Of a stretch of DNA of 64,000 nt, positions 25,692 to 63,468 are shown piece after piece. The stretch is from Actinomycetes bacterium. Its GTDB lineage: Bacteria > Actinomycetota > Thermoleophilia > RBG-16-64-13. The position numbers were made by a program, and so were the translations under genes. Under the pieces are notes generated by a model. That model was given only the letters and a program-made list of their open reading frames with translations. It was not told the origin of the DNA and made no database searches. The stretch's first letter is position 1; each line of letters begins with the position of its first letter. Location: positions 4,423-68,422 of the forward strand of contig JAGXFV010000032.1 of the NCBI GenBank assembly GCA_024637095.1, written 5' to 3'.

Positions 25692-26252
25692 CTACCCGGC
25701 CTCCTGGGCCAGGGTGACCAGGTCTTCGGCCGTCGGCTTCACTCCAACCAGGGTGCGGCTGATCTCGCCCTGCGAGTCGATGACGACCAGCGTGGGCACG
25801 CCCTGAACCCGGTAGTCCATGGCCAGCTGCCCATCGAGATCGAGCATCACCGGGAACTGATAGCCGTTCGACTGCAGAAAGTCGGTGACGTCCTCCTCCG
25901 TATCCTGCACTGCGACCACCAGAAGATTCGCGACTTCCGAGCTTTCCCGATAGAACCTATCGAGTTCGGGAGATTCCTCCACGCAGGTTGGTCACCAGGA
26001 GGCCCAAAAGTTGAGGAGCAACGGCTTACCTCGGTAGGACTCCAGCGAGAAGTCCTCGCGCACGAGGTTGACACCGCCGGTCGCCGTGGCGTCGCTCCCA
26101 ACCGTGGCGTCGTCGCCGGCCGCGGAGGCAGGGCCCTCCGTGTTATTCGCGGTGGGCTCGGATTCATCGTCTCCACAACCGGCCGGCCCAAAAGAGAGAA
26201 CGGCCACCAAGAGCAACAAGAGGATCGGCAACAGGGTCCTCGATCGGGTCAT
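25692..26252 (-). CDS. TlpA/ResA/CcmG-like periplasmic thiol-disulfide oxidoreductase with an in-frame TGA (predicted selenocysteine) at 25992-25994, giving the active site W-A-S-W-U-P-T-C
   Basis: ORFs 25992..26252 and 25692..25982 are in the same frame, separated only by that TGA. Lipoprotein-like signal, then ...GKPLLLNFWASW[TGA]PTCVEESPELD... The TGA sits where the first Cys of WCxPC belongs. Confidence 0.6.
25946..25980 (-). promoter_or_regulatory. Candidate bacterial SECIS hairpins downstream of the TlpA-like UGA
   Basis: RNA: UGA, 11 nt, then GGAG-gaau-CUCC at +12, then CUCGAUA-gguuc-UAUCGGG (7 bp, G/U-containing loop) at +28. The fold was not computed. Confidence 0.3.
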
Positions 26253-35386: not shown

Positions 35387-37393
35387 CTAGACCTCGTGCA
35401 GGCGGGCTTGGCGCTCGTAGCGGGCGGCCAGCCGCCGCTCCTCCCGCCGGTCCGGCCATAGCGCGATGAGTCCGCCGAGGGTGGCAACAATGCCCCCGAT
35501 CCAGAGCCAACTGGTCAGCGGGTTGACGCTGACGTCGACGGTGATGGTGGCGCCGTCCGGCGCTTCGTATTCCATCAGTGAGACGTAGACGTCACGCAGC
35601 AGAGTGCTGTGCCGGTCCACGCGGGTCCAGGGCTGGTCCTTGGCAAAATAGAACTCCCGCACCGGCTCTGCCGTACCCAGGAACTTACCGTCCTCCTCGA
35701 GGCGGAAGACCGCCTGACCCACCGACTTCTCGTCGGTGTTGAAGCTGGAGAATTCCTCATAGGTGACGGTGTAGTCGCCCACGGTCACCGCTTCGCCCTT
35801 GGCGAGCTGGACGTTCTGGGCCTTCTCCTGGAAGGAGTAGTGCCCGGTGACCCCGATCAGGAAGAGGATGACTCCGGCATGGACGATGTAGCCTCCGTAG
35901 CGCCGCTTATTCCGCCGGACCAGCGAGGTGAAGGCCTTGAAGATGTTGTCGCCGGTCATCTCGCGCCGCACCAGGGTTCCTCGGGCGAATTCCATAAAGA
36001 TGGTACCCAGCACGAAGGCCGAGAGGGTGAAGGCGATCAGAGCCCAGACGTGGGTCATCCCGAACGCCAAGAGGGCCACCAGTACCACGGCCGCGGTCCC
36101 GCCAGGGTACATGAAGTTCTTGCTAAGGTTGGCGAAGGTTGCCCTCCGCCACGCTATGAGCGGGCAGATACCGGTGAGGAACATAAAGACCAAACCGATG
36201 GGACGGATGACCGTGTCGAAGAAGGGCGGACCGACCGTCTGCTTGTCGCCGGTGATCGCTTCGCTGAGTATCGGCCACAGCACGCCCCAGAGGACAGTCC
36301 CGGCCATGCCCACGAGCAGCAGGTTGTTCATAAGGAAGCTGGACTCCCGCGACAGCAGGCTGTCCAACTCGTTACGCGACTTCAGCAGGTCGAGCCGGCT
36401 GAAGAGCAGGTTGAGGCTGAAGACCAGGGTCAGCGCCATGAAGGCTATGAAGTAGGGACCCACGCTGGCCTGCCCGAAGGAGTGCACCGAATTGATGATG
36501 CCCGAGCGCGTCAGGAAGGTGCCGAAGATGGTCAGGGTGAAGGTCATGATGATCAGGACGATGTTCCACACCTTCAGCATGTCCTTCTTTTCCTGGATCA
36601 TCACCGAGTGCAAGAAGGCGGTGCCGGTCAGCCAGGGCATGAACGAGGCGTTCTCGACCGGGTCCCAGGCCCAGAAGCCCCCCCAACCAAGGGTGACGTA
36701 AGCCCACCAGGCGCCGACCAGGTTTCCGATGGTCAGGAAGAACCATCCGGCCAGGGTCCAGCGTCGGGTGGAACGGATCCAGAAGTCGCCCAAACGCTTG
36801 GTGATCAGCGCGGCCATGGCGAACGCGAAAGGCACCGCAAAGCCAACGTAACCCAGATAGGTAGCCACCGGGTGGATCACCATCCCCGGATTCTCGAGCA
36901 TAGGATTCAAGCCGTTGCCCTGGGCGGGTGAGCCCATGGGGTTGGCCTCGAAAGGATTCGAGCCCTCGAAGGCGACCAGAAGCAGGCCGAAGAAGAGCGA
37001 AACCACCATGAGGACGGAGACCACGTAGGGGACCAGTTCCCGGTTCTTCACGCGGTTCTGGTAGACCACCGTGGCCGAAAATCCGGCGAGCAAGAGGAGC
37101 CACAGCAGCAACGAACCCGCGTTGCCGGCCCAGAAAGCCGAGAAAGTGTAGAAGCCGTTGAGATCGTTCGAGGTGTACTGCCACACGTAATAGTTCGAGT
37201 AATCGCGGGTCATCATGGCGATCCAAAGGACCACCGCCGCCACACCGACCACGGCGGCGAGCGCGTAGGCAGAGTGCAGCCCGCTCTGGATTAGGTCCCG
37301 CCGGCCCAGGCGCGCGCCAACCACGGGCATCACAGCGCCATAAGCGGCCAGCATGACCGCGAGCAGAAGGGCCGTGTAACCGATTTGATTCAT
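35387..37393 (-). CDS. ccmF: Cytochrome c-type biogenesis heme lyase CcmF
   Basis: 668 aa, polytopic, with a WWD domain and the conserved His residues. Confidence 0.9.
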   Translation of the reverse strand: MNQIGYTALLLAVMLAAYGAVMPVVGARLGRRDLIQSGLHSAYALAAVVGVAAVVLWIAMMTRDYSNYYVWQYTSNDLNGFYTFSAFWAGNAGSLLLWLLLLAGFSATVVYQNRVKNRELVPYVVSVLMVVSLFFGLLLVAFEGSNPFEANPMGSPAQGNGLNPMLENPGMVIHPVATYLGYVGFAVPFAFAMAALITKRLGDFWIRSTRRWTLAGWFFLTIGNLVGAWWAYVTLGWGGFWAWDPVENASFMPWLTGTAFLHSVMIQEKKDMLKVWNIVLIIMTFTLTIFGTFLTRSGIINSVHSFGQASVGPYFIAFMALTLVFSLNLLFSRLDLLKSRNELDSLLSRESSFLMNNLLLVGMAGTVLWGVLWPILSEAITGDKQTVGPPFFDTVIRPIGLVFMFLTGICPLIAWRRATFANLSKNFMYPGGTAAVVLVALLAFGMTHVWALIAFTLSAFVLGTIFMEFARGTLVRREMTGDNIFKAFTSLVRRNKRRYGGYIVHAGVILFLIGVTGHYSFQEKAQNVQLAKGEAVTVGDYTVTYEEFSSFNTDEKSVGQAVFRLEEDGKFLGTAEPVREFYFAKDQPWTRVDRHSTLLRDVYVSLMEYEAPDGATITVDVSVNPLTSWLWIGGIVATLGGLIALWPDRREERRLAARYERQARLHEV

Positions 37394-42499: not shown

Positions 42500-44071
42500 C
42501 TAGCCTCCGCCCCCTTGGCCGATCAACTGCAGCAGGCGCTCCTCGCCAAGTGGCCCTGGCGGCGCCACTTGGCCGTTCACCACGAGCGTCGGCACGGTGG
42601 ACACCCGATAGCGCTGAGCCACCTCGGGGAACGCCGTGGCGGCGATCATGTCCGCGGTCACGTGAGGCGAGGCCATGGCGAAGCGGTGAACCAGCCGTAC
42701 GACCCCGGGGCAGTTGGGGCAGGTGGGGGTCACCAGCACTTCGAGATGAACCGGCTCCGTCAATCCGGCCAAGCCCTCGTGGGTCTGCTCGCTCAGCCTA
42801 AACTCGCCGCGCGAGACGTCCATTACGTCATCCAGAAAGGCGCCGAACTCGTAGCCCGCAGGTACCCCATAGAAACGGATGCGGGGATGCTGATCGCTCT
42901 CCTTGCCGATGAGAGTCGCGGGGATGCGCTCGACGCCCAGGTCCTCGGCCCGTTCATGATCCTGCAGGAAGTCCAGCAACTCGAGTTCGAGCTTGGGAGA
43001 TAGCCCCGCGAACTCACTCAGCAGACGTCGGGCTTCTTCACACTCGTGACAGGCGAGGCTGGACATCTCGGAGTCCGACAATTGGGAAAAGTGCACCAGC
43101 CTCACCGGATCCACCAGCTTTCCCAGGATCCGAGACAGATTGGCTCGATCCTCCGAGGTGATGGCCTGCGGCTCTTCCGGCCGTCCGCCCTCCCGGCTGC
43201 GGGCGAATCTCACGGCGCTGAGGGCTGCGACCTGCCCTTCTCCCACCGCCTTCGCGATCTGGTAAGGCTCTCCAACGGAGTCACCCGCAGCGAAGATCCC
43301 GGGGATGCCGGTCTCCATCATACGGTTGACCTTGATGTGCCGGCCCTCGAACTCGAGCCCGTCCACCAGGGTCGACGGGGAGACACTCTCCCGGAAGATG
43401 AACACCCCATCGGCCACGAGCTCCCGTTCCGGCAGCACGACGTGGACCTTCATCCCTTCGCGGTACAGGCGGTCCGGCCGCTGCCGGGGAAGGACCTCGA
43501 CCTCGGCGGGAAGCTCGTAAGGCCCTTCGTACAGCGGGATGAACTTCACCTGACAGCCCATATCCTCGGCCAGGGCAGCAGCTTCCTCCTCACCTTCCTG
43601 GGCGTAGCTGATGAAAGCCACCTCGCGTCCGGCGTACAGGCGGCCGTCGCAGTTGACACAGTAGCTGACGCCCATGCCCACCAGATCGTCCTCGCCCTCG
43701 AGGGTCGAGCCCCGGTAGACCCCGGGCGCCAGGATGATTGCCTGGGCGTGATAGTTATCCCGGTCGGTGGAGACCATCAACTCGTCCTCGCCGGGAAGAA
43801 TGCGCGTCACCCGTTCTTTGAGCAGGGTCACCTCGAAGCGTTCCAGATGCTCGAGAAAACTCTCGGCGAGTTCCTCCCCGGTGGTGAAGGTGAAGCCCGG
43901 ATAGTTGGGGATATGCGGCGCACGTCGGGTCTTCGAAAAGGGCCGCAGCGCGTCGAACACCGCCACCGTGCGTTTGCGGTTGGCCACATTCATAGCGGCG
44001 GAGAGGCCCGCCGGTCCCGCGCCTACCACGATCACGTCATAGCCCGACGATTTGCTCTCAGGAGTGGTCAC
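42500..44071 (-). CDS. Thioredoxin-reductase-like flavoprotein fused to C-terminal thioredoxin/PDO-like domains
   Basis: GTG at 44069-44071 behind GAGGTGA. YDVIVVGAGPAG, a TrxR-like redox-active SYCVNCDG, then thioredoxin-fold segments carrying LACHEC and TPTCPNCP. Confidence 0.6.
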   Translation of the reverse strand: MTTPESKSSGYDVIVVGAGPAGLSAAMNVANRKRTVAVFDALRPFSKTRRAPHIPNYPGFTFTTGEELAESFLEHLERFEVTLLKERVTRILPGEDELMVSTDRDNYHAQAIILAPGVYRGSTLEGEDDLVGMGVSYCVNCDGRLYAGREVAFISYAQEGEEEAAALAEDMGCQVKFIPLYEGPYELPAEVEVLPRQRPDRLYREGMKVHVVLPERELVADGVFIFRESVSPSTLVDGLEFEGRHIKVNRMMETGIPGIFAAGDSVGEPYQIAKAVGEGQVAALSAVRFARSREGGRPEEPQAITSEDRANLSRILGKLVDPVRLVHFSQLSDSEMSSLACHECEEARRLLSEFAGLSPKLELELLDFLQDHERAEDLGVERIPATLIGKESDQHPRIRFYGVPAGYEFGAFLDDVMDVSRGEFRLSEQTHEGLAGLTEPVHLEVLVTPTCPNCPGVVRLVHRFAMASPHVTADMIAATAFPEVAQRYRVSTVPTLVVNGQVAPPGPLGEERLLQLIGQGGGG

Positions 44072-44213
44072 GTCTTCACCTCGTCCGTGCGAATGGTTCC
44101 TGTCGCTTCTACCCGCGCGGAAGAGGGCGAAAAACGGGGAGGCGGGCCGAGCCCGCCTCCCCGTCGTTTTCCGACGTTCTCCTTTGGGGCCGCCACATCT
44201 CAGGGATCGGGGG

Positions 44214-44837
44214 TCAGGCCCCGCTCTCCTCGACCACGCGACCAGTCTCATCCACCGATTGCCAGTAGCAGCCCGTGAACATCGCGCGCGTCCGGGCGAG
44301 GGGCTGCATCAGCACCAGGTAGATGTGCACCAGCGTGAAGGACACGAACACCCAGGCAATTAGGAAGTGGATCTGCCGGGCGGTCATGAGTCCCCCGAAC
44401 AAGTCCACCAACCAGAAGAGCCGGGTCGGCCAGTAGAGGGCGAAGCCGACCAGCACCATAACCGCGGAAAGGACGAACAGCAGCAAGTAGGTGATGATCT
44501 GCAACGGGTTGTACTTTCGCAGATGGATGTTCTCGTCCGTTATGAACAGGTAGTACTTGAGAGAGTTGCCCAGCCCCGACATGTTGCGCGGAGTGGGCCC
44601 TGCCTGAGACCACTTGCCGCTGGCGAAGAACTGATAGATGTGAAACAGCCCTATGAACACGAATAGGTACATGTCCACGAAGTGCACCCAGCGGGCGTTG
44701 TTCATACTGCCGAACACGTTGAACTCCGGCCAGTGGATCTGAAACCCGGACAGTACCAGCAGCACGGTGTTGGCGAGGTGGATCCAATGGCCGGTGCGCT
44801 CAATGGGATCGTGATAGCAAAGCAGCTGGCGTTTCAT
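44214..44837 (-). CDS. [NiFe] hydrogenase b-type cytochrome membrane subunit (HyaC/HupC family)
   Basis: 207 aa with four TM helices and conserved His ligands. Immediately downstream of the large subunit. Confidence 0.8.
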   Translation of the reverse strand: MKRQLLCYHDPIERTGHWIHLANTVLLVLSGFQIHWPEFNVFGSMNNARWVHFVDMYLFVFIGLFHIYQFFASGKWSQAGPTPRNMSGLGNSLKYYLFITDENIHLRKYNPLQIITYLLLFVLSAVMVLVGFALYWPTRLFWLVDLFGGLMTARQIHFLIAWVFVSFTLVHIYLVLMQPLARTRAMFTGCYWQSVDETGRVVEESGA

Positions 44838-44849
44838 GGCTCCCCTTCC

Positions 44850-46487
44850 TCACCGCACCTTGAAGTCGAGAACCCGGTTGCTCTTCGGTTCAATCACGTG
44901 AACCGAGCACGCCATTCAGGGATCGAAGCTGTGCAGGGTGCGCAACACCTCCAGCGGCCGCTCCGGGTCGGCCACCGGCGTGCCCACCAGCGCCTCTTCC
45001 ACCGGTCCCCGGATGCGCTCGGCCGTCATCCGCGGTGAGAAGTTCCAACCGGACGGGGTGATCACCGAGTAGTGGCTGACCACGCCATCATCCAATTCAA
45101 CCCAATGCGAGAGTGAACCCCGAGGCGCATCCCAGCCGCTGAAGCCACGACCGCTGGGGTTGTCCGGGAAGGGCTCGAAGAAATCGAGGTCCCCACCCTT
45201 CATGTTCTCGCGCAGAGCCGCGACATAGGCCAGAGTCTGATCGGCCACCAGTTGGATCTTGAGCGTGCGGGCGGCGATCCGTCCGAGATTGGAGAAGAGC
45301 ACCGGGATGTTGCCGGCCTGGCCGACGGCGGCCAGGGTGTTGTCCACCATCTGCTTGGCCGGATGGGAGTCTCCATGGACCAGGTAGGCCATCAACATCT
45401 CCGCCAGGGGGCCGACTTCGCACGGCACGCCCTTGAGTGTCGAACCGCGATCCCAGGCGTAGCGGTCCAGTCCCGCCACCTCGGTGATGCCGTGAGGGCC
45501 GGTGAAGTCCGGCCTTTGCTTGGCCTCGTAGGGATGCATGTCGTCGAAGGGCTCCTGCCAGGTGCTTGTGTACCAGACGCGCACATCCTCCAGTTGGTCG
45601 ACAGGCTGAACGTCGAGGTTGCCCTCCAGCGCACCGATGACAGCGCCCTGGGGGAAGAAGCGGTTCTCGGGCCGGCCTTCCTCCATGTCGTTCCAGTCGA
45701 GCACACCCCAACTGAAGTAGTTGCCGTGGCCCTGCCCTATGGTCGCCTGGTCCAGGTAGTAGGGGGCGATGGCCAGCAGGTCGGGAACCATCTTGTTGTC
45801 GATGAAGTCCTTGACCTGCTGCACCTTGAAGGCATAGCGGTTGATCTGCTCCTCATGGGGGACCGAGGACCAGCCGCCGGGCGGAGTCGACATATGGTGC
45901 GGGAACTTGCCCCCGAAGACGGCGAAGGCCTCCGAGGCCGTAGCCTGAATGGAGACCGATTCGAGATAGTGTGCAGCCAGTTGCAGGTTGAGCTCGGGAG
46001 GCAAGGTGTAGGCCGGATGATCCCAGTAGCCGCTCTCCAGGAAGCCGAGTTGGCCGGAATCCACGAAGGCCTGCAGCCGCCGTTGCACCGTTTGCAAACC
46101 CTCAGAGGAGGCCTGTGCCCCGAGCGCGCTGGGCACGTTTACGTAATCCAGGCCGTTCAGGACGTAGAACCAGAGCACGTGGTCGTGGAGCAACTGCCCG
46201 CACTCGAGCAGGTTGCGCATCAGGCGGCCGTTCACGGGGATGTTCACGCCCGCCGCGTCTTCCAGAGCGAAGGCGGAGTTGTGGCCGTGCGGCGCTGGGC
46301 ACACTCCGCAGATCCGCTCGGTGTAGTGCTGAGCGTCATACCAGGGTCGGCCTTCGACGATGGTCTCCATGCCGCGGAAGAGCGTGCTGCACGTCCAGGC
46401 GTCCGTCACCACTCCGTTCTCCACCTCTACCTCTACGTGAAGGTGGCCCTCGATGCGGGTGACCGGGTCGATGATGATCTTCGGCAT
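44850..46487 (-). CDS. [NiFeSe] hydrogenase large subunit, with TGA (Sec) at 44916-44918 in the C-terminal DP-U-MAC-SVH motif and a 15-aa protease-cleavable tail
   Basis: N-terminus RICGVCPAPH (the L1 motif). The ORF stops at ...LRTLHSFDP, and the same frame continues TGA-MACSVHVIEPKSNRVLDFKVR-TGA. This recreates DPUxxCxxH exactly. Confidence 0.85.
44886..44905 (-). promoter_or_regulatory. bSECIS-like hairpin 11 nt downstream of the hydrogenase UGA
   Basis: RNA: UGA-AUGGCGUGCU-CGGUUCA-cgugau-UGAACCG. This is a perfect 7-bp stem beginning at +11 with a G/U-containing loop. Confidence 0.5.
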
Positions 46488-47594
46488 CTAGACCTCCTCC
46501 TCTTCTTCGACCACCTCTTGGGTCTTGCCGAGGCGCCCCCGGGCGGCGCTGACAGCGAAGTGGGCGGCGATGGCGGCACCGGTGGCGGCAGCCAGTCCAA
46601 TGCCGATGGTGTCGGCGTCGGCGCGGATCCCCCCGACTCCCGGAATGGCGATTCCGGGCATGGGCTCATAGAAATCGATCAGCTCATCCCAGAAGTCCTT
46701 CTCGGCGCAGCCGATGCACTGGCCCGCCTGCACGCACCAGGAGGTGCGCCCGTTGAAGAGGACCTGAGGACAGTCGGCGAAGGTGCTGGGGCCGCGGCAG
46801 CCCATTTTGTACAGGCAATAGCGGTTGAACTCGTCCTCGCTGCCCAGCTGCTCGACGAAACGGCCCTCGTCGAAGTGAGATCGCCGCTCGCACATGTCGT
46901 GAACCTTCTTGCCGAAATGAACCAGCGGGCGGCGCCAGCGATCCGTCTCGGGCAGAGCCCCACGGGTCAGGAAGTAGGTGATGGTCGAAGTCAGGTGAAC
47001 CGGATTCACGGGGCAGGTGGTCAGCTGCACGAGCTTATCCGTGTCCATGCCCTCGCTCTCCATGAATTCCAGCATGCCCATGGCTCCGGTCGGGTTCGGG
47101 TGGGCGGCCTGGACGTTGCCGAAAGCGGCGCAGTTGCCAATTGCGATCACCAGCGCCGCCGCCGGGATGACCTCTCGGGCGATGTCGACCGAGGTCCGAC
47201 CTCCGACGGTCATGGCATTCTCTATCCCGGTGGCCACCGATCCCTCGACCACCAGGACGTAGCCGCCCGCGGACACGTTCTTCGCGAGGCTCTGGTGCGC
47301 ATTCTCTCCCGCGCCGGCCATGATGGCCTCGTGGTATTCGACGCTGACCAGATCGAGCACCAGGCTGACGAAGTCGGGATCGCGGCTCTTGGTGACAGAT
47401 TCGGTGCAACCCAAGCATTCCTGCCATGTCACCCAGACGACCGGCCGGCGCTCGGCCGCCTGAGCCAGCGCCCGCGCAATGTTGGGAGCGAAGGAGCTCC
47501 CCAATCCCATGGCCGCGGCCAGCGTGGTGCAGCCCTTCAGGAAATCTCGCCGGCTTAGATCGTGCGCTTCCAGGGCCTTCTCAAGTCGATTCAC
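46488..47594 (-). CDS. [NiFe] hydrogenase small subunit with a Tat signal
   Basis: GTG at 47592-47594 behind AAGGGGTGG. ...LSRRDFLKGCTTLAAAMGLG..., then VWVTWQECLGCTES and distal cluster Cys. The stop abuts the large-subunit start. Confidence 0.85.
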   Translation of the reverse strand: MNRLEKALEAHDLSRRDFLKGCTTLAAAMGLGSSFAPNIARALAQAAERRPVVWVTWQECLGCTESVTKSRDPDFVSLVLDLVSVEYHEAIMAGAGENAHQSLAKNVSAGGYVLVVEGSVATGIENAMTVGGRTSVDIAREVIPAAALVIAIGNCAAFGNVQAAHPNPTGAMGMLEFMESEGMDTDKLVQLTTCPVNPVHLTSTITYFLTRGALPETDRWRRPLVHFGKKVHDMCERRSHFDEGRFVEQLGSEDEFNRYCLYKMGCRGPSTFADCPQVLFNGRTSWCVQAGQCIGCAEKDFWDELIDFYEPMPGIAIPGVGGIRADADTIGIGLAAATGAAIAAHFAVSAARGRLGKTQEVVEEEEEV

Positions 47595-47819
47595 GCCGAC
47601 CACCCCTTGCGCAGGTTCTTGAGCGCCACGCCAAATCCTGTGCCGGCCAGGGCGCCGTACAGAAACTTGAGGAACTCGAGACGGGTAAGCCTCATCCATC
47701 AACCTCCTTCCGATTCACCAAGGCCCGGCGGGCGCTGCCCGGACGGGGTGCGGGAAGAGGAGACCATGGCGAGCTCCGGCCCAAGGCGCCGGACCCCAAC
47801 CGGCTCTGCGCCTCGAGAT

Positions 47820-48032: not shown

Positions 48033-48593
48033 TTATCCGTCGAACCGGCGAAGTTCGTCGTCGAGTCGGGCGCGCACCTGATCGGAGCCTTCTCGATTCA
48101 CAGGGATCGGCACTGCGGCGGCGGGCTCGTCCTGGCGGCGCCAGCGCTGAATCACGAACAAGAGGGCGCCGAGGGCCACCAACGTGGCCAAGGTCGGGAA
48201 GAGATAGGCCATCAGGCCGAAACCCGACTTCTCGGGGGCGGCGAGTATCTGCGTACCGTAACGGTCTTTGAAAAAGCCGACAATCTCGCCCTTGTCCGAG
48301 CCGCTCACCACCATCGAACGTATCTGGGCCTTTATCTCTTCAGCCTTCTCGCTGTTGTGCTCCGCGACGGTCTGGGTGTAGCAGCAGGGAGCGATGAGCT
48401 CTCCCTCCAAGGACCGAGCCAACGATTCCTGCTCGGAAGACAGGATCTCCGCTGTATCGGCCAAAGCGGCCCCGGGAACCAAGAACATCGCGGCCAAGAG
48501 CAGAAAGGCCGAGACCACGAGGGCAAGGGGGCTCAGCCCAAGCCCTTTCCCATCAGCGCGCGACATCAATGCTCCTCTCTCCGGTGAACTCAC
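48033..48593 (-). CDS. Second CcmH-like paralogue (periplasmic CC motif, C-terminal TM helix)
   Basis: 186 aa. The C-terminal 60 residues are nearly colinear with the ccmH-like gene at 34884..35378 (LAAPEKSGFGLMAYLFP...RARLDDELRRFD). The Cys motif is APCCYTQT. Confidence 0.45.
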   Translation of the reverse strand: MSSPERGALMSRADGKGLGLSPLALVVSAFLLLAAMFLVPGAALADTAEILSSEQESLARSLEGELIAPCCYTQTVAEHNSEKAEEIKAQIRSMVVSGSDKGEIVGFFKDRYGTQILAAPEKSGFGLMAYLFPTLATLVALGALLFVIQRWRRQDEPAAAVPIPVNREGSDQVRARLDDELRRFDG

Positions 48594-48611: not shown

Positions 48612-48815
48612 TCAGCCAAAACCGCTCGAGGGACAGTTGGGAGCCCCACCGGCGCTCGAAGAGGAGGAAGTGCAGGCCATGAACCCGGTGAAAAGCTGCT
48701 CGATTTCGCGACTGCCACAATCAGGGCAGAGGCGATTCTCGTCCTTCAGGAATCCCTGTACGAAGACCTCGAAGTCGTTCCCGCAAGACGTGCAGCGCAG
48801 ATCGTAAGACGCCAT
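48612..48815 (-). CDS. FmdB-family zinc-ribbon protein
   Basis: 67 aa. MASYDLRCTSCGNDFEVF...CPDCGS. Confidence 0.55.
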   Translation of the reverse strand: MASYDLRCTSCGNDFEVFVQGFLKDENRLCPDCGSREIEQLFTGFMACTSSSSSAGGAPNCPSSGFG

Positions 48816-49145
48816 CTATTCCAGAGCTCCCTGAGCCTTGAGTTCGTTTACCACCCAGCCGAAGGAGAGCACGGGCGGAGTCTTCACCTCGTCGCCCGAA
48901 AGAACCATGGGAAGAGGCCGGCCCTCCTCGACTGCTTTGGCCAACGAAGGATACTCCGCCAGCTCTGAATTGTCGACGTCCACATAACGAATGCGCACCT
49001 GATCGCCGTAGTCCTGCTGCAGGTAGCGGTTGATATAACCCACCGTCTCTTCCAGAGACAGAGGAGGAGCTCAACCACCCCCGCGGCACGCGTCGTATGC
49101 GTGCGAACCAACCACGACCAGCTCTCCGGTTTTTACGTTTGCCAC
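48816..49145 (-). CDS. Small thioredoxin-fold, ArsD-like protein with an in-frame TGA (predicted Sec) at 49071-49073, giving a C-x4-U motif. 109 aa if read through.
   Basis: GTG at 49143-49145 behind GGAGGCAAA. Reads MANVKTGELVVVGSHAYDACRGGG-[TGA]-APPLSLEETVGYINRYLQQDYGDQVRIRYVDVDNS...LPMVLSGDEV..., with the TGA at the N-terminus of helix 1, where redox residues sit. The track only has the post-TGA part (48816..49043). Confidence 0.45.
49043..49064 (-). promoter_or_regulatory. Hairpin 7 nt after the ArsD-like UGA (candidate bSECIS)
   Basis: RNA: UGA-GCUCCU-CUG-UCUC-uggaa-GAGA-CGG. This is about 7 bp including one G·U, with a GG-containing loop. Confidence 0.3.
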
Positions 49146-49153
49146 TTTGCCTC

Positions 49154-49480
49154 CTAAGTGAGCCCGAACTCGCGCTCGTAGTCCTTCTGGCTCCGCGCAC
49201 CGATGATCTGAGCCGAAACCTGACCCTTCTCGAAGAGGATCACGGTGGGAATGCTCATGATGCCGTAACGAGCCGCGAGCTCCTGATTCTCATCCACATT
49301 GACTTTGAGCACCTTGACGCTCTCAGTGTGCTCGCCGGCGAGCTTTTCGAGGACCGGTCCAACCATCTTGCAAGGACCGCACCATGGAGCCCAGAAGTCG
49401 ACCACCACTTTGCCGTCCGCGCTGATTACCTCGTCATCAAACACAGTCGTGTCGATGTCCCGCACTTGTCCGTCACCCAC
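49154..49480 (-). CDS. trxA: Thioredoxin
   Basis: GTG at 49478-49480 behind AAAGGAG. 108 aa. WAPWCGPCK. Confidence 0.85.
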   Translation of the reverse strand: MGDGQVRDIDTTVFDDEVISADGKVVVDFWAPWCGPCKMVGPVLEKLAGEHTESVKVLKVNVDENQELAARYGIMSIPTVILFEKGQVSAQIIGARSQKDYEREFGLT

Positions 49481-53282: not shown

Positions 53283-53399
53283 ATGGCGGATACCCTGATC
53301 TATGTACGCTCAGATTCGCTCGCCGAAGAGCCCGAGATCGGATCGATGGCGAAGCTGCAGGAATTGATGCTGTCTGCCCACAAAGTGATCACGCTCTGA
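53283..53399 (+). CDS. 38-aa hypothetical ORF preceding the DUF3343 gene
   Basis: MADTLIYVRSDSLAEEPEIGSMAKLQELMLSAHKVITL. Its stop is 10 nt before the next start, and a GAGGAG sits in the spacer. No similarity recognised. Confidence 0.2.
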   Translation: MADTLIYVRSDSLAEEPEIGSMAKLQELMLSAHKVITL

Positions 53400-53409
53400 G
53401 GAGCCCTGG

Positions 53410-53700
53410 GTGACTCAAGCCCCCGAAGAGATCTTTCGCGTCATCACCTATCAAACCACCCACCAGGCCATGGCCGCCGAGGAAGTGCTTCATGATGCCG
53501 CCGTGACCTTCGAGGTGGTCCCCGCACCGGAAGAGGTGAGCGCCGGGTGCGGACTCGCCCACCGGCTTCGAGAGAAGGACCTGGATGCGGCGATCGCGAT
53601 CCTACGGGACGCCGGAGCGGACTACGACCGCGTGGTCGTTCCGACCCGGGGTTTTCGGCAGAGCCAAGACAGATTTGGCCAAGGCCGGATGGTAGAGTAG
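53410..53700 (+). CDS. DUF3343 (putative Se/S carrier-like) protein
   Basis: GTG start. 96 aa. FRVITYQTTHQAMAAEEVL...VPAPEEVSAGCGLAHRL fits the DUF3343 pattern, including the conserved CG. Confidence 0.55.
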   Translation: MTQAPEEIFRVITYQTTHQAMAAEEVLHDAAVTFEVVPAPEEVSAGCGLAHRLREKDLDAAIAILRDAGADYDRVVVPTRGFRQSQDRFGQGRMVE

Positions 53701-56760: not shown

Positions 56761-58989
56761 TTAGATGCCGGTAGGAAGCTCCGTCGCGTCCGAGCGCTCC
56801 AGCCGAGCGAGGTTGTCGTGGTCGCCGGTCTTCTCGATCGAAACACGGGTGCTACCCCAAGCAAGTTCACCGGTGTCCCCAACTTCCAGCAGTTCGAGCA
56901 GGTCAACGGTGTTGACGCCCCGATCGTTGGCGTAGCGCCCGTAGGCCACGTGTCCCTGGCCCATGGGCATACCCACCACGCCGGGTGCGATTCCCTGAAA
57001 CACGTACACCGGCACCTCGAGTTCGGCGCTCTGGGAGGCGACGCGGACGATATCCCCCGTCTTCAACTCGAGCTCTTCGGCCAATCCGGGATTGATCTCG
57101 ACCCAGCTTTGCCAGACCACGGTGGTCATGGGGTCGGGTGCCTCCTGCAGCCAGGCCTTGTTGGCGTGGCGTCCCTCGGCCAGGAGCAGATGGGGGTAGA
57201 TCTGCAGGCGATGCGGCCGGGCTTCCTCCGGACGGGCCGTCACCAGCTGCTCGAGGGCGACCTCCGAGGGCACGACGGGCGTGACCTCGGGCCGGTCTTC
57301 CTGCGTCGACCACCAGCCTCCGAACTGCCGCCACTCCAAGAAGAACTTCTCCGGATCGTTGGTCAGGATCGAACCGGTCTGAATCCGCCCGGCGGTCAGA
57401 GCCTGCTGCATGGTCTCCACCGACTGACGCACATAGGTGAACTCGTCCTCCCAGGGCAGGAGTTCGGCGTACGTCCCTCCCGCCAGCCGCGCCCCGGCCA
57501 GAAAGATGTCTACGAGCGACCTCGTGTCGAAAACGGGTGGGACCACGGGCTGCTGCGCCGTCATCGTCGAGAGCGCGGTCCCCGGTTCGGGCACACCGAA
57601 ACCCCAGGACTCCAGGTAAGTGTGCTGAGGTAACCGCAGATCGGCGAATAGCTCGCTGGTATCCGTGGGGAAGGGCGAGAAGTCGATGAGGAGAGGCACT
57701 TGGTCGGCCGCTTCGGCGAAGCCCATCGCCTCAGGAAGGTCGTGATAGGGGTCGCCGTCGGCCACCAGCAGCACGTCAACTTCGCCCGCCTTCATGTCTT
57801 CGAGCAGGGCGGCGGTTTCGACATAGGAGGAAACCTCCTCCCGAGGATCGAGTTCGCCTCCCGCTGGGGCCGGCGGGCTGAGGAAGAGGGTGCGGTTGGG
57901 AGCGCCCACCAGCAAGTTGAGCGCGAGCACTGCGCGGATTGCGGCAGGAGCGTTGTCGAAGGCACTCAGGCCACCGCCGGGGATGGCAAGGGGCGCCTCG
58001 GACCGGGCGAATCTCCTGGCGATCCGCACCAGTTTCTCGAAGTCCAGTCCGAGTTCCTCCGCCAGACCGCGCGCCTCCACCTGGGAGAAGAGTGCATCCA
58101 CCGAAGCGGGGCGATCGCCCGCACCCAGACGTTCGTCCAGAACGATCTTGCCTATTATCAGGGCGACCTCGCCCTCGCGCCCACCCGGTGGGGAAAGCCA
58201 ATCGTCGGCCACCGCGGCCGTCGACGAAAGGCGGGGCTCGACCGCCACGAGACTCCCCCGATTGGCGCCCTTACGCAGTTCGGCGAAGCCGCGCGAGTAC
58301 TGTACCGGCGAAAGCCAGGTCTCGAGGAAGGCAGCGTTGAAGCTGATGACCGCGCTTGCCGCCCCGATGTCGAACAGGGGCAGGCGCTCGGCCCCCAGGA
58401 TGTCCCCCGCTGCCTGTTGCAGAAGGTTACGGCCTTCCGCCGCCCGGTAGAGATTCCATACCGTGGGCCGGCGGTTGCCGCCCGCCGCCTCCAGCAGCCG
58501 AGCGGCCACCCGATAAACATGGTCGGGCAGATGACCGCCATAGATCGCGATCCGCCCCGGGGATTCGGAGAGGGCCTGGCCCAGAACGGCCAGCCCCTCG
58601 TCCCAGTTGGTGCGTTCGAAGGGGTCGGTTCTTTGATTTGCGCGCACTTCCGGCCCCTGCAGGCGATCCGGATTATACAACGCTTGGAGACCCGCCTGTC
58701 CTCTGGCGCACAGCCGTCCCTGGCTGATCGGGTGCTGCGGATTGCCTTCGAGTTTATTCGCGCGCCCGTTCATCGTACGCACCAAGATCCCACAGCCCGC
58801 CGGGCACATCTGGCAGAGACTGGTGTAGTAGGTGAAAGTCCCGGCAACCTGCTCCTCGGGGGTGCGCAGGAAAGGAACCAGCCGCTCCTCATTGCCTCTG
58901 CCACCGCAACCGCTCAGAGCAAGCGTGCCTGCCGCGGCCAGTAGCCCGGACTTCTTCAGAAACTCGCGCCGCGTGAACTTGGGCATCAT
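56761..58989 (-). CDS. Tat-exported molybdopterin (Mo-bisPGD family) oxidoreductase catalytic subunit
   Basis: ATG-ATG at 58984-58989. MMPKFTRREFLKKSGLLAAAGTLALSGC..., with the N-terminal Fe-S motif CQMCPAGC...C(ARGQ). About 742 aa. The 1024-aa ORF in the track over-extends across the upstream gene. Confidence 0.7.
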   Translation of the reverse strand: MMPKFTRREFLKKSGLLAAAGTLALSGCGGRGNEERLVPFLRTPEEQVAGTFTYYTSLCQMCPAGCGILVRTMNGRANKLEGNPQHPISQGRLCARGQAGLQALYNPDRLQGPEVRANQRTDPFERTNWDEGLAVLGQALSESPGRIAIYGGHLPDHVYRVAARLLEAAGGNRRPTVWNLYRAAEGRNLLQQAAGDILGAERLPLFDIGAASAVISFNAAFLETWLSPVQYSRGFAELRKGANRGSLVAVEPRLSSTAAVADDWLSPPGGREGEVALIIGKIVLDERLGAGDRPASVDALFSQVEARGLAEELGLDFEKLVRIARRFARSEAPLAIPGGGLSAFDNAPAAIRAVLALNLLVGAPNRTLFLSPPAPAGGELDPREEVSSYVETAALLEDMKAGEVDVLLVADGDPYHDLPEAMGFAEAADQVPLLIDFSPFPTDTSELFADLRLPQHTYLESWGFGVPEPGTALSTMTAQQPVVPPVFDTRSLVDIFLAGARLAGGTYAELLPWEDEFTYVRQSVETMQQALTAGRIQTGSILTNDPEKFFLEWRQFGGWWSTQEDRPEVTPVVPSEVALEQLVTARPEEARPHRLQIYPHLLLAEGRHANKAWLQEAPDPMTTVVWQSWVEINPGLAEELELKTGDIVRVASQSAELEVPVYVFQGIAPGVVGMPMGQGHVAYGRYANDRGVNTVDLLELLEVGDTGELAWGSTRVSIEKTGDHDNLARLERSDATELPTGI

Positions 58990-59009
58990 CCTATTGCTGC
59001 TCTCCCTGT

Positions 59010-61289
59010 CTACATGTGGCAGATATGGCAGTCGGTGAGGAAGCGTCCTTCCGGAGGGTCCTCTCCCCACAGCGTGGTTTCCTCGAGGGCGTCCTCCGGG
59101 GGATCCTCGTAGAGAGCGTAGTCGGCCGTCTTGTGACACGCCAGACAGAAACCCATATTGAGATCTTTGGCCGGCGAGCGCACGGTGGTCAGTTTGCCCA
59201 CATCGCCGTGGCAGCGCTCGCACTGGACTTCGGCAACCACCACGTGCGCGCGGTGGTTGAACACCACGAAATCGGGCTGGTTGTAGACTCTCTTCCAGGA
59301 TACCTGGGTGCCGTTGTTGTAGGCATCGAGCACGGCCTGGGTAGCTTCGGTCTGAGTGGAGATCCACTGATGACAGCCCGCGCAGAGCTCGAGGGGCGGC
59401 AGGTCGGCTGCCGGCCCGCGCCGCGCCGAGGCGTGGCAGAAGAGGCAATCCACTCCGCGATCCACGTGCGCCTTGTGGGTGAAGGGCAACTCCTCCGAGC
59501 CCTCGGCCGTCCGCGCACCGCCGGCGCCCGCCCCCCCTGTCGGCTCGGTAGGCTCCGACCCCGGCGCGGTGGTTTCGGTCACGCCTGCCTCCGTAGTCTG
59601 GGTCCCGCCGTCTGTGGGTTCTGTGGCCGGCCCACCCGGCTGCCAAGAGCGCAGCAACTCGACGAACGAAGCGATTTCCTCTCCCGACAGGGTTCCGCCG
59701 AAGGGAGGCATAGGTGTGCCCGACCGGCCCTGCTCGATCAACTGCTGCAGATCCCCGTCCGAGGCCTGCTGCACGAACTGGTTTTCCTGGAGCGCAGGGC
59801 CGATGCCCCCGCCCGCCCCCTCGGCGCCGTGGCAACTAGAGCAGTTCTGTTCGAAGAGGTTCCCCGCCGCCTCGAGGTTGGCGGTGCCGGCCTGAGCCAG
59901 CATGATCCTGGGGCTCTCATTCCGGTTGACCGCCCGCCGGGGCAGATTATTGGGCACCCCGCGCACCCGCGTATTCGCCACTAGGCTCCACTCGACTACG
60001 GCCAACCGGCGGTCTCCACCTGAGGGAGCAGCCCGCTCGCCGTCCAGGGTAGAGGTCCCGCTCTGCCAGCTATCGAGCAGGGCGATCACCGCCGTGATCT
60101 GCTGATCCGTCAGCCGACCGGCGAACGGCGGCATGGGTGTCCCGGCCCTGCCCTGCTCGATCAACTGCCGCAGCACGTCTTCCGTTGCCTGCTGCACCCA
60201 TTGATTCTCCTTCAGGGCGGGTCCGATGCCTCCCCCTGCGCCCTCCTCCCCGTGGCAGGTGGCGCAGTTCTGCGTGAAGACCTCCTGACCGGTTGCGATC
60301 AGGTCTCCTCCGAGTTCGGTGGTGGTCGTCGCCGAGGGCGCCGCCGTGGTCGTGGTCTGCCCGGACGGCGCCGTGGTGGTCGTGCTTCCCGGGGCGCCGG
60401 GTGTATCGACCCCCGATTCCAGCAGGCGGCGGCGGGTCTCCTCGATGGCGACGGGACCTTCGCGTTGGAGCAGCTTGAGGAACTCGGCCATGCCGGCCGC
60501 TTCCTCTTGGCTCAAGTAGCCGGAGAATGAGGGCATGCCCTGGCTGGTCCGGCCCGCGATGATGATCCCGGCGATGTCCTCGACCGCGGCATCGGTGATG
60601 AAAGCCGAGGGATAGAGCGCCGGCCCCAAGGCTCCTCGCCCGGAGGGGCCGTGGCAGGTAGCGCACTGCAGGTTGTAGAGCAGAGCCGCCCGCTGAGTGG
60701 GACTTCCCTCGGCCTCAGGCGGCGGGCCGGTGGTCACGCTGCGCAGGTAATTGACCACATGCCAGCGCCCTTCCCTCTCGAGGTTCCAATCCAGGGCGGG
60801 CATCCGCCCGAACCCTTCTCCGATAACGGTGTAGATCTGACCATCGGGCAGATCCACCACCCGCTCACCCAGATCGGGAGGGGAAGGCTGGAAGAGTTCG
60901 CCCACGGGTCCGGGCGCGCCGGCTCCGGGTTCGCCGTGACAAAGCATGCAGTAGATGCCGTAAGCATTCTCGCCGCGCGCCAGGGACTCCACCGTGTACG
61001 AAACCGGGTTAACCGGAAGCCCGAGAGCTTCGGCGGCCACCGGTCCCTGAAAGGGTATGGCTTCGGCGGGCGACACCAACCGGGGCGGTTCGACGTAGCC
61101 CAGGCTTGGCTGCTCCGCCAGTTCGTTCGGCAGGGGGATCAGGCAACCGGTGAAGATCTGCGCGATCATGAAGACCAGCAGACCGACCACGAGCACCGCG
61201 CCGATCAGCTTGCCCCAACCCGTCCACGCAGGGGGTTCGGGGCGGCGGCGGACGGCCTGTTCCCGGGACGGATCCGACGCGGGGCTCAC
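59010..61289 (-). CDS. Nonaheme c-type cytochrome: four class-I monoheme domains fused to a C-terminal ActA-like pentaheme domain
   Basis: N-terminal TM helix. Monoheme sites CMLCHG, CATCHG, CATCHG, CSSCHG. Pentaheme sites CLFCH, CAGCH, CERCH, CLACH, CHICH, with FTHKAHV / FNHRAHV motifs. Confidence 0.7.
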   Translation of the reverse strand: MSPASDPSREQAVRRRPEPPAWTGWGKLIGAVLVVGLLVFMIAQIFTGCLIPLPNELAEQPSLGYVEPPRLVSPAEAIPFQGPVAAEALGLPVNPVSYTVESLARGENAYGIYCMLCHGEPGAGAPGPVGELFQPSPPDLGERVVDLPDGQIYTVIGEGFGRMPALDWNLEREGRWHVVNYLRSVTTGPPPEAEGSPTQRAALLYNLQCATCHGPSGRGALGPALYPSAFITDAAVEDIAGIIIAGRTSQGMPSFSGYLSQEEAAGMAEFLKLLQREGPVAIEETRRRLLESGVDTPGAPGSTTTTAPSGQTTTTAAPSATTTTELGGDLIATGQEVFTQNCATCHGEEGAGGGIGPALKENQWVQQATEDVLRQLIEQGRAGTPMPPFAGRLTDQQITAVIALLDSWQSGTSTLDGERAAPSGGDRRLAVVEWSLVANTRVRGVPNNLPRRAVNRNESPRIMLAQAGTANLEAAGNLFEQNCSSCHGAEGAGGGIGPALQENQFVQQASDGDLQQLIEQGRSGTPMPPFGGTLSGEEIASFVELLRSWQPGGPATEPTDGGTQTTEAGVTETTAPGSEPTEPTGGAGAGGARTAEGSEELPFTHKAHVDRGVDCLFCHASARRGPAADLPPLELCAGCHQWISTQTEATQAVLDAYNNGTQVSWKRVYNQPDFVVFNHRAHVVVAEVQCERCHGDVGKLTTVRSPAKDLNMGFCLACHKTADYALYEDPPEDALEETTLWGEDPPEGRFLTDCHICHM

Positions 61290-61849
61290 GAAGGCTCCCG
61301 TTCGATCACCAGGGCTTCTCCCTCAAGGCGCTCGGCCTCGAAGTCCTCGATCGGCAGAATGCGTGCTCCTTCCTCGCTCAGCGCCGCGCGAATACGGCCC
61401 TCGACCATGTCGGGAGGCACCTGCACGATCAGCACGTGTCCGTCGATGTCGGCCGGAATCACCCAGTCTCGCAGGGGATCCTTGCGGATGCGGTTCTCGT
61501 AGACAAAGCCGACAAAGGTCATGATGACGAGTCCCAGGATCGTCAGCTCGTACACGATGACAAAAACCGGCGGCGAAATGACCGCCTGGCTGCCCACGAT
61601 CAGCGGATAGAGTAGCAGCGTGCCCACCGAAAGGAAGAGACCGAGCGCCAGCCCGCCCACCAGCCCAAGCGAGGTGAAGAGCGGCAGACGGGTGTCGGAG
61701 GTCTCGCCCCCCATGAGCGAAGGCGGGTAAGGAATGTCGGTGAGCAGTTCGATCCGCTTTCGCGAAACCCCCATTCGAGACAGACGGCGCATGGCCCGGG
61801 CGATGCCCTCTGGGCCTTCGATCACCGCAAAGATGACTTCCCCGCTCAC
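61286..61849 (-). CDS. ActD-like (DUF3341) membrane subunit of an Alternative-Complex-III-type quinol oxidoreductase
   Basis: GTG start overlapping the upstream stop (GTGA). VSGEVIFAVIEGPEG...YPLIVGSQAVISPPVFVIVYELTILGLVIM fits the DUF3341 pattern. Confidence 0.5.
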   Translation of the reverse strand: MSGEVIFAVIEGPEGIARAMRRLSRMGVSRKRIELLTDIPYPPSLMGGETSDTRLPLFTSLGLVGGLALGLFLSVGTLLLYPLIVGSQAVISPPVFVIVYELTILGLVIMTFVGFVYENRIRKDPLRDWVIPADIDGHVLIVQVPPDMVEGRIRAALSEEGARILPIEDFEAERLEGEALVIEREPS

Positions 61850-63448
61850 GCGGGCACCTCTTCTGGGCGATTCTCGGACGGGGGCGGAGATGCGCCCCGC
61901 GGCTCCTGCGCCGGCTCGGTTTCTCCTTCGACAATCCCCTGGGTGCGCCACTTGTCCAGCCGCCAGCCCTCCTTGACCTCCCACAGGGAGACGAAGGGCA
62001 GCGCCTTGGAAAGGGCCACGTAGAGGAAGGCGAACATGGCGAAGGTCGCCGCGGCGATGATTATCTCGGGCAGCGCCGGGGTGTAGTCGCCCCAGTCGAA
62101 CGGCAAATGGTTACGCACGTTGGAGCCCACCACGATCAGGAAGCGTTCGATCCACATCCCCATGTTGATCAGAATCGTGATCACCAGCATCGCAGGAAGC
62201 GAACGACGTACCCGCTTGAACCACAGCGTGAAGAAGGGCAGCAGCACGTTCACAACCACCATGAACCACCAAAGCGGCGCCATGGCCCCGAAGATGTGCA
62301 GATGCTCGAGCTCCCGGTCTACCGGATTGCCTCCGTACCAGTTGGTCAGCGTCTGGGCAAAGAACATGTAGAACCAGATGACCGACACGGCCAGGAGGAT
62401 CAGGCCCAGCCGGTCGAAGTGGAATTTGGTGATGTAGTCCTGCAGGCCGAGCCCGCGCCGGACGAAGATGAGCACCGTGATCAGCGCCGCGACGCCGGAG
62501 TAGATGGCTCCGATCACGAAATAGGGAGCGAAGATGGTGCTGTGCCAGCCCTCGTTGGTGGTCATGGCGAAATCCCACGACACGATCGAGTGCACCGAGA
62601 CCGCCACCGGGATGATCACGATGGTGTAGACCTTCATCGCCAGATGCAGCCGGTGCCACTGCTGCTGCGATCCCCGCCAACCCAGCGCCAGCACACCGTA
62701 GATACGCCGCCGGATGCCGGTGGTGCGGTCCCGCGCCGTGGCCATGTCCGGAATCATCGGCATGAAGAGGAAGAGGGCGCTCGAGGTCATGTAGGTCAGG
62801 ATGGCCACCAGGTCCCAAACCAGGGCCGAGTGGAAGTTGGGCCAGAGCTCGCGGACGTTAGGGTAGGGGATCATGAAGTAGAACTTCCAAACGCGGCCCA
62901 GATGAATAAGAGGGAAAAGGGCGCCCACCATCAGGCTGAAGAGGGTCATGGCCTCGGCTCCGCGGGTCAACGGGCGCCGCCACTCTACGTTCAAGACGCG
63001 CAGGATGGCCGAGATCAGCGTGCCCGAGTGGCTCACCCCGATCCAGAACACGAAGCTCGTGATGTAGAAGCCCCAGAAGACGGGACGGTTGATGCCCGCG
63101 ACGCCGATGCCGGCGAAGATCTGGTAGAGCCAGGCGCCGAACAGCGAAGCCGCCCCCATGCCCAGCACGGCGGCCAGCAGCAGATACCCCGCACCGACTC
63201 GGGTCATCGAGCGAAGTACGATCCCGTCGAGCGCCGCGTCCATCCGAGCCAGCTCTTCCTCGGTGGGGGGCACGTCCTCGATGGTTCCGTCGGCGACGGC
63301 GTCCTGAAGCGTTGAGTAAGCGCCCGGTTCGTGGCGTTCGTCCTGATGCTCGTAGGCGAGCTGCCGTTCGGCCTCGGGGACCGCCTCTTGCCCTAGGCCG
63401 CGAGTGGGACCGCCTGAGTAGCGGGGAAGCCTTGCCCAGTTTGGGAGC

Positions 63449-63468
<20 letters not shown>
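61846..63468 (-). CDS. NrfD/PsrC-family polytopic membrane quinol-interacting subunit (ActC-like)
   Basis: 540 aa with about ten TM helices and a family-typical loop pattern. Exact start uncertain (20-bp overlap with the upstream gene). Confidence 0.8.

Follow-up and report, generated by a model that had tools for sequence, protein, structure and literature searches.

An in-frame TGA beside a thioredoxin gene very probably encodes selenocysteine in an unannotated YuzD/DUF1462-like protein of Thermoleophilia-type Actinomycetota

Does the TGA that interrupts a small frame next to a thioredoxin gene end a short peptide, or does it code for selenocysteine (Sec)? The question is raised by a 64,000-nucleotide stretch of contig JAGXFV010000032.1 (Actinomycetes bacterium, assembly GCA_024637095.1), which was analyzed at its full length and is referred to here as the window. 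On its minus strand, a frame at 49145–48816 spans 330 nt and codes for 109 residues with the TGA read through. The mechanical list of open reading frames (ORFs) holds only the 75-residue tail of this frame (48816–49043, from a GTG at 49043), which is annotated as a hypothetical protein. An earlier reading of the letters alone, the sequence-only reading, had proposed a longer gene with a GTG start, a Shine-Dalgarno site, the TGA and an in-frame continuation, and all of its coordinates for these elements are correct (Table 1). Translation after the TGA starts with APPLSLEETVGYINRYL and ends with AQGALE, reading in full APPLSLEETVGYINRYLQQDYGDQVRIRYVDVDNSELAEYPSLAKAVEEGRPLPMVLSGDEVKTPPVLSFGWVVNELKAQGALE. 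The UGA at codon 25 is very probably read as Sec, and the comparison of sequences gives us high confidence that this is a real, unannotated selenoprotein gene. The gene structure, conservation, hairpin, fold, cysteine (Cys) homologues and synteny are documented below; Sec insertion itself is what we infer.

When the read-through product, with Cys in place of Sec, is searched by indexed words against 5.8 billion proteins, six matches are returned, all of them 60–81 residues long and starting right after the position of the TGA. The contigs of these matches were fetched and one genome per species was scanned, giving ten distinct orthologues (the window copy, L005, L006 and L008–L014). They are 64–95% identical, derive from metagenome-assembled genomes (MAGs) of Thermoleophilia/Actinomycetota, and include as the closest relative JADQBG010000008.1 from 'Actinomycetota bacterium Soudan_30'. 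First, the TGA occupies the same codon in every orthologue, and the terminal stops vary among TAG, TGA and TAA. Second, each orthologue has its own ATG, GTG or TTG ~22–32 codons upstream of the TGA, mostly with a GGAGG-like site before it (including ATG and GTG starts), and the upstream peptide is kept as ..VKTGE(L/M)VVVGSRxxDACRGGG-TGA-APPLSLEETVGYINRYL. Third, the N-terminal extension proposed earlier is conserved at the protein level: its amino acids are retained and third codon positions drift (Gly-12 is GGT, GGC or GGG; Arg-4 is CGC, CGG or AGG). Over 21 pairs, the ratio of nonsynonymous to synonymous differences (pN/pS) is 0.33 for codons -17 to -1 versus 0.36 for codons +12 to +82, which indicates equal purifying selection on both sides of the TGA. 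Conservation of the TGA together with both of its flanks in ten of ten independent orthologues is far beyond chance.

The current annotation implies that the TGA is a true stop, closing a 24-codon leader ORF that is followed by a separate protein of ~75–84 residues. Every database gene call stops or starts around the TGA, and a GTG is present at codon +10 in the window. That annotated GTG is GTC in eight of the ten orthologues, however. Past the TGA, an in-frame start first becomes available at codons that range from +4 to +37; it has no Shine-Dalgarno site and would if used remove invariant residues. Homologues do not begin at the downstream GTG. Moreover, frame and amino acid conservation continue straight over the TGA, the internal stop is invariably TGA, full-length Cys homologues exist, and the thioredoxin fold is incomplete without its first strand, beta1. 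We regard a true stop as very improbable. It is scarcely credible that the locus is a pseudogene or an assembly error, or that the TGA has been reassigned to Trp or Gly and not to Sec. Reassignment would account for the Trp that stands at the homologous TGA in database entries P0023, P0056, P0080 and P0100, but these residues are gene-caller artefacts, as the underlying codon is TGA and table 11 gives truncated calls of these very genes. TGA also terminates many ordinary genes of the window, such as that for anthranilate synthase, which indicates that the genetic code is standard. Decay or misassembly is contradicted by the agreement of ten independent assemblies, and frameshifts occur only in one metagenomic copy (L007), which has the same TGA context. 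A leader ORF plus a separate ORF, a pseudogene and an alternative genetic code were all rejected on these grounds.

Distant homologues have Cys where the window gene has TGA. The motif is C-FSGG-C in P0024 and C-GPEG-C in P0041, and in a gapless BLASTP alignment of P0024 that runs through the N-terminus and the motif (31% identity, E = 4e-17), C-FSGG-C falls on C-RGGG-U. A family alignment of 31 sequences shows an invariant first Cys, and Cys makes up at least 90% of the column in which Sec lies. The proposal of an unrecognized selenoprotein with a C-x4-U pair is supported by the conserved TGA, the equal pN/pS and these Cys homologues.

The hairpin that had been noticed 3' of the UGA is real and is conserved in the orthologues. 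Its core occupies positions +10 to +28 after the UGA, starting 9 nt downstream, and has 7–8 bp closed by the loop UGGAA; in the window it extends to a C7–G31 pair (+7 to +31), with a folding energy of -14 to -15.6 kcal/mol. For a 44-nt segment the minimum free energy is -15.6 kcal/mol (z = -2.14), and 6 of 200 shuffled sequences fold equally well. The orthologues share the consensus CUGUCUC-UGGAR-GAGACRG, RNAalifold recovers the same core of eight pairs plus a short lower stem from all ten, and variation in the stem is one-sided with pairing retained (U-G/U-A, C-G/U-G). Codons within the stem are synonymously frozen: Ser+5 is TCT in 10/10 orthologues and Pro+3 is CCT in 9/10, although in the genes of the window TCT accounts for only 7.8% of the Ser codons and CCT for 12% of those for Pro. 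Other invariant Ser, Pro and Gly columns use two to four codons. The proportion of synonymous differences (pS) is 0.38 in the hairpin region versus 0.55–0.64 elsewhere. In bacteria, the selenocysteine insertion sequence (SECIS) is a stem-loop just 3' of the UGA with a G in its apical loop ~16–37 nt from the UGA. The position and loop of the hairpin (G at loop positions 2–3, with the loop starting 17 nt after the UGA) fit this model.

A Sec-decoding host is indirectly supported by two other selenoprotein genes in the window, both of which had been flagged from their TGA codons (25992 and 44916) and both of which are confirmed. The [NiFeSe] hydrogenase large subunit (44850–46487) has the canonical sequence ...HSFDP-U-MACSVH, with TGA at 44918–44916 and a 21-codon tail after it, and this Sec site and its hairpin are identical in L008–L013. 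A TlpA/ResA/CcmG-like lipoprotein gene at 25692–26252 on the minus strand, which mechanical calling splits into two ORFs, codes for a UxxC thiol:disulfide oxidoreductase selenoprotein (FWASW-U-PTC, TGA at 25994–25992). Hairpins are present at comparable distances from the UGA at both of these sites.

To which family does the protein belong? The read-through product with Cys for Sec has no Pfam or NCBIfam match at E ≤ 1, no hidden Markov model (HMM) for Thioredoxin, glutaredoxin, Thioredoxin_3 or Rdx matches it, and its motif is C-x4-U and not CxxC, UxxC or CxxU. An exhaustive HMM search with a profile of the C-terminal part yields 41 representatives, and a second word search with a wider alignment yields 72 proteins. 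Among the profile-search relatives, P0016 (34.9 bits), P0049 (26.2) and P0038 (25.1) score above the Pfam DUF1462 gathering threshold of 25 bits, and the source records of some relatives call them 'DUF1462 family protein' or 'disulfide oxidoreductase YuzD'. Family profiles match PDB entry 1XG8 (Staphylococcus aureus SA0798, DUF1462) at E = 8e-6 and 5.7e-5, and next in rank come the small archaeal thioredoxins 1NHO and 1FO5; the narrow profile of the actinobacterial clade returns only noise in a PDB sequence search. The closest known family by sequence profile and structure is DUF1462/YuzD, reached via intermediate sequences, and the window protein is placed as a putative divergent actinobacterial branch of a YuzD/DUF1462-like family.

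Structure prediction was made on the Cys homologue P0024 and on the C-terminal fragment of the window protein, and both models are consistent with a thioredoxin-like fold. The AlphaFold2 model of P0024 (predicted local distance difference test, pLDDT, 79.6) has the order beta1-loop-alpha1-beta2-alpha2-beta3-beta4-alpha3, with the Cys pair in a low-confidence beta1-alpha1 loop. A Foldseek comparison of this model with the PDB places 1XG8 first (TMt 0.65, probability 1.00), followed by thioredoxins and ArsD (3MWH, 0.56; 3KGK, 0.61). The C-terminal 84 residues of the window protein are modeled with a mean pLDDT of 91.8, and helix 1 begins at L31, which places Sec25 in the beta1-alpha1 loop ~6 residues before the helix. 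The models bear out the thioredoxin-like fold proposed in the sequence-only reading, but not its placement of the TGA at the start of helix 1. Its comparison with ArsD holds in part: because DUF1462/YuzD is the nearer family, and no Pfam or NCBIfam ArsD HMM matches, 'ArsD-like' is true only of the fold and the C-x4-C spacing. The resemblance of ArsD LPLLLLDGETV to LPMVLSGDEV, offered earlier as a link, reflects a plain cis-Pro/beta3 element; the motif is kept across the whole alignment and has aligned counterparts in 1XG8 and two small archaeal thioredoxins, and therefore does not single out ArsD.

Proteins of the DUF1462/YuzD family (PF07315; 1XG8), annotated as 'putative disulfide oxidoreductase', resemble the window protein in their length of ~100–110 residues and minimal thioredoxin-like fold, in a Cys motif in the beta1-alpha1 loop that is followed by xP and a long alpha1, and in the Y(V/I)D(V/I) of beta2 and the (L/Y)P(L/I) of the cis-Pro beta3. 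They differ in having C-x2-C (CASC in 1XG8) where the window protein has C-x4-U, such that the first Cys aligns and the second is displaced by two residues, and the window protein has Sec. Relative to classical Sec-containing enzymes of the thioredoxin fold (thioredoxin, glutaredoxin and TlpA with UxxC; SelW/Rdx with CxxU), it likewise has Sec in place of a Cys in a redox pair close to the start of alpha1 and has Cys orthologues elsewhere. Unlike them, its spacing is x4 and not x2, its pair lies on a loop ~6 residues before the helix, and it falls outside their sequence families. Replacement of Cys by Sec in a thioredoxin-fold active site is well known; the C-x4-U spacing is unusual.

Further cases of in-frame TGA occur among the relatives. 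Lengths in the match list are bimodal, at ~70–83 and ~105–136 residues, and the 'full-length' entries P0023, P0056, P0076, P0080, P0095 and P0100 have Trp where others have Cys. The DNA under each of these Trp residues is TGA, and identical genes have also been deposited in truncated form; the spurious Trp arises because the contigs were called with a table in which TGA encodes Trp. Six short lineages from Firmicutes and other anaerobes were checked (L015/L016; L017/L018; L019/L020, Pelotomaculum terephthalicicum JT; L021, a Syntrophomonadaceae MAG; L022; L023), and all six have an in-frame TGA after a conserved beta1, with hairpins 3' of it. The putative Sec falls in the first conserved Cys column in L015, L017 and L023 (G-G-U), directly after that column in L019 (C-U), at C-x2-U in L021, and at the second position in L022 (C-RKG-U) and P0023, as in the window protein. 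Sec appears to replace one or the other of two conserved Cys residues in the YuzD/DUF1462-like family.

No NCBIfam selenoprotein model matches the U-to-C forms of the short-lineage proteins; the sequence-only reading, too, had not placed the protein in a named selenoprotein family. Neither PF07315 nor ArsD is among the prokaryotic selenoprotein families tabulated in a 2026 review, and no mention of the YuzD/DUF1462-like family occurs in deep-Sep or BSepDB. A literature search found no paper linking YuzD or ArsD to selenoproteins, DUF1462 giving one irrelevant paper and YuzD by itself only noise. The Sec forms of this family appear to be unrecognized so far. The nearest entry of the review table is the Brachyspira PF13192 'Sec.1/Sec.2' family (2017, PMC5330540), which also comprises small thioredoxin-fold proteins that have Cys/Sec within a short N-terminal stretch, that annotation truncates or overlooks, and that have a SECIS hairpin right after the UGA. 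It differs in its domain (PF13192/TIGR00412, neither of which matches here), CxU/UxC motifs, phylum and gene context.

The gene stands in a conserved cluster in the order trxA, selenoprotein gene, FmdB zinc ribbon, ccmH, hydrogenase small and large subunits, cytochrome b and flavoprotein (Table 1). The trxA stop codon is TAG at 49156–49154, leaving 8 nt before the selenoprotein GTG, and the ATG of the zinc-ribbon gene directly abuts the selenoprotein TAG. The full order is kept in L008–L013. Synteny of the cluster, with the hydrogenase as a variable element, spans seven genomes, and the core of trxA, selenoprotein gene, zinc ribbon and ccmH is also found on the short contigs L005 and L006 and on one JGI contig. 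In L014 the hydrogenase is missing and the rest of the cluster, including the flavoprotein, is retained; the hydrogenase is therefore not a constant partner, unlike thioredoxin, the zinc-ribbon protein, CcmH and the flavoprotein. Firmicutes relatives have unrelated neighbors, which indicates that this gene context is specific to the actinobacterial clade. No signal peptide is found in the 109-residue protein.

Table 1. Features of the selenoprotein locus and its cluster, with positions in the window
Feature	Position	Strand	Remarks
Shine-Dalgarno site GGAGG	49150–49154	-	Overlaps last base of trxA stop; 4-nt spacer to GTG
5' part of gene, unannotated at present: GTG (49145–49143) plus 23 codons	49074–49145	-	beta1 and Cys20 loop, VANVKTGELVVVGSHAYDACRGGG
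In-frame TGA, proposed codon for Sec25	49071–49073	-	TGA in 10/10 orthologues
3' part of gene: 84 codons plus TAG (48818–48816)	48816–49070	-	alpha1-beta2-alpha2-cisPro79-beta3-beta4-alpha3
SECIS-like hairpin	49038–49068 (core stem-loop 49043–49061)	-	CUGUCUC-UGGAA-GAGACGG plus short lower stem
Thioredoxin, trxA-type, 108 residues	49154–49480	-	Pfam Thioredoxin 6e-30, TIGR01068 5e-35; adjoins gene in every orthologous locus
FmdB-family CxxC...CxxC zinc ribbon	48612–48815	-	Pfam Zn_ribbon_8 5e-12, TIGR02605; beside gene in all loci
CcmH/NrfF-like membrane protein	48033–48593	-	Pfam CcmH 2e-23; conserved cluster member by synteny
[NiFeSe] hydrogenase, small and large subunits	46488–47702 (small), 44850–46487 (large)	-	In most orthologous clusters, not all
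Flavoprotein, disulfide-reductase-like, 583 residues, C-terminal Thioredoxin_3/glutaredoxin domain	42500–44251	-	Pfam Pyr_redox_2 2e-20, Thioredoxin_3 9e-17

Some of these neighbors have peculiarities of their own. CcmH usually has a CxxC motif; the CcmH/NrfF-like protein, which is always clustered with the selenoprotein gene, reads ...IAPCCYTQTVAEHNS, with a vicinal CC. The zinc-ribbon protein has a Ser-rich tail with two further Cys residues, and in a more distant clade (P0026) the selenoprotein and zinc-ribbon frames appear to be fused via a frameshift. Sec (UxxU) forms of the FmdB family are listed in the 2026 review.

What might the protein do? We lean toward a single gene for a 109-residue cytoplasmic selenoprotein with hairpin-directed UGA recoding and a thioredoxin-like fold, likely acting as a thiol/selenol-disulfide oxidoreductase recycled by thioredoxin. 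Codon 25 would be decoded by the bacterial SelB/SECIS mechanism, with the hairpin starting 9 nt further on as the directing element. Cys20 and Sec25 (D-x-C-R-G-G-G-U-A-P-P) would lie on a Gly-rich beta1-alpha1 loop facing the loop of the conserved cis-Pro79, and the thioredoxin whose gene ends 8 nt upstream, and which is co-transcribed, would reduce their selenenylsulfide. The ultimate reductant may be the flavoprotein of the same cluster, a possible candidate as the electron source, and the substrate a cluster partner, from the thiol pathway linked to CcmH or else the FmdB zinc-ribbon protein, whose gene is translationally coupled. This model draws on the gene order, the fold and the placement of the motif across from cis-Pro79, and a thioredoxin-recycled Cys/Sec oxidoreductase is the most likely role, with the redox cycle and its partners being conjectural.

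Several observations weigh against this account. Fold, motif position and gene order are the whole basis of the redox role, C-x4-U differs from the classical CxxC spacing, and the Cys-rich loops of Firmicutes relatives resemble metal sites more. As to the family, the narrow clade profile matches 1XG8 weakly (E = 0.2, hhalign), so the relation to DUF1462 is distant and transitive, and the window protein has no PF07315 match at E ≤ 1. As to recoding, only 1 of 14 hairpin pairs shows two-sided compensatory change, and the z-score is just -2.14; the region also encodes the invariant peptide APPLSLEETV, which constrains its sequence and makes strong covariation impossible. No Rfam family matches the window at gathering thresholds or the locus at permissive thresholds. 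The window and the fetched loci contain no selA, selB, selD or tRNA-Sec gene, ARAGORN finds no tRNA in the window or eight related loci, and there is no sel gene among the twenty ORFs, out of the largest of the window, that were scanned.

A genuine selenoprotein could instead be an ArsD-type chaperone for soft metals or metalloids. Its ligands would be the thiolate of Cys20 and the selenolate of Sec25, which would capture As(III), Sb(III), Cu(I), Ni, Hg or selenium itself for transfer to a partner. The metalloid site of ArsD is formed by Cys12, Cys13 and Cys18, and the C-x4-U spacing is equal to that of Cys13 and Cys18 (C-x4-C). ArsD (PF06953, NF033727; 3MWH, 3KGK) shares the thioredoxin-like fold with ligand Cys residues on the loop after beta1 and is among the top fold matches (TMt 0.56–0.61), and the Gly-rich loop of the window protein would be flexible. 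Firmicutes relatives have 4–6 Cys in this loop, N-terminal halves of relatives weakly match NCBIfam VcpD ('ArsD-related vicinal cysteine protein', 7.9e-5), Pfam ArsD (0.083) and Metallothio_2 (0.0012), and the surrounding few kb hold genes for CsoR, CopZ, IdeR, a DsrE-like/Se_S_carrier pair and a Ni enzyme. All of these weak matches are far under the family cut-offs, however, and the window protein itself has no ArsD HMM match at E ≤ 1 in Pfam or NCBIfam. The vicinal Cys12-Cys13 pair is absent and there is no third ligand, as proteins of the actinobacterial clade have one Cys and one Sec only. No ars operon, arsA/arsB or ArsA partner is found in the conserved neighborhood, which consists of trxA, FmdB, ccmH, hydrogenase and flavoprotein genes with thioredoxin as the invariant neighbor, and no Sec forms of ArsD are known in the sources searched. 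A chaperone role is the main alternative to the thioredoxin-recycled oxidoreductase, and one that we find rather doubtful.

A more far-reaching reading is speculative and on present evidence unlikely to hold as a whole. It would make the YuzD/DUF1462-like proteins a broad unrecognized selenoprotein family of Actinomycetota, Firmicutes and other anaerobes, in which Sec was recruited independently at either active-site position. In the actinobacterial form, the Cys/Sec loop would be more than a redox site of the generic kind: it would serve specifically as a selenium-based carrier or reductase that works with FmdB and CcmH, linking cytoplasmic thioredoxin to the maturation of cytochrome c or hydrogenase.

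Other features of the window are recorded here in their own right. CcmF, of System I cytochrome c maturation, is encoded at 35387–37393 on the minus strand, alongside CcmH and the Sec-containing TlpA-like protein of the window. Upstream of a Se_S_carrier (DUF3343) gene at 53410–53700 on the plus strand lies a DsrE-like gene (53283–53399, plus strand) of only 38 codons; its orthologue in L001 has 111 residues, and ~73 in-frame codons including the Cys motif are missing from the window, reflecting either a deletion or an assembly collapse. The replicative helicase DnaB (12548–14377, minus strand) contains an intein (Intein_splicing domain, residues 407–541). Toward the other end of the window are a molybdopterin oxidoreductase (56761–59835) and an NrfD-like protein (61846–63468).

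Recognition of this gene corrects a systematic annotation error, in which the window gene and at least six other relative lineages have been deposited as fragments of 60–83 residues or with a spurious Trp. It adds a probable selenoprotein family that is found neither in NCBIfam 20.0 nor in the 2026 review table of prokaryotic selenoproteins, and extends the predicted use of Sec in Thermoleophilia-type Actinomycetota. The presence of Sec would mark the Cys pair of the uncharacterized YuzD/DUF1462-like proteins as their functional center, and the tight linkage with trxA, FmdB and ccmH names concrete candidate partners. If the broader proposal of a selenium-based carrier or reductase is true, it would provide the first testable role for proteins of the YuzD and FmdB types.

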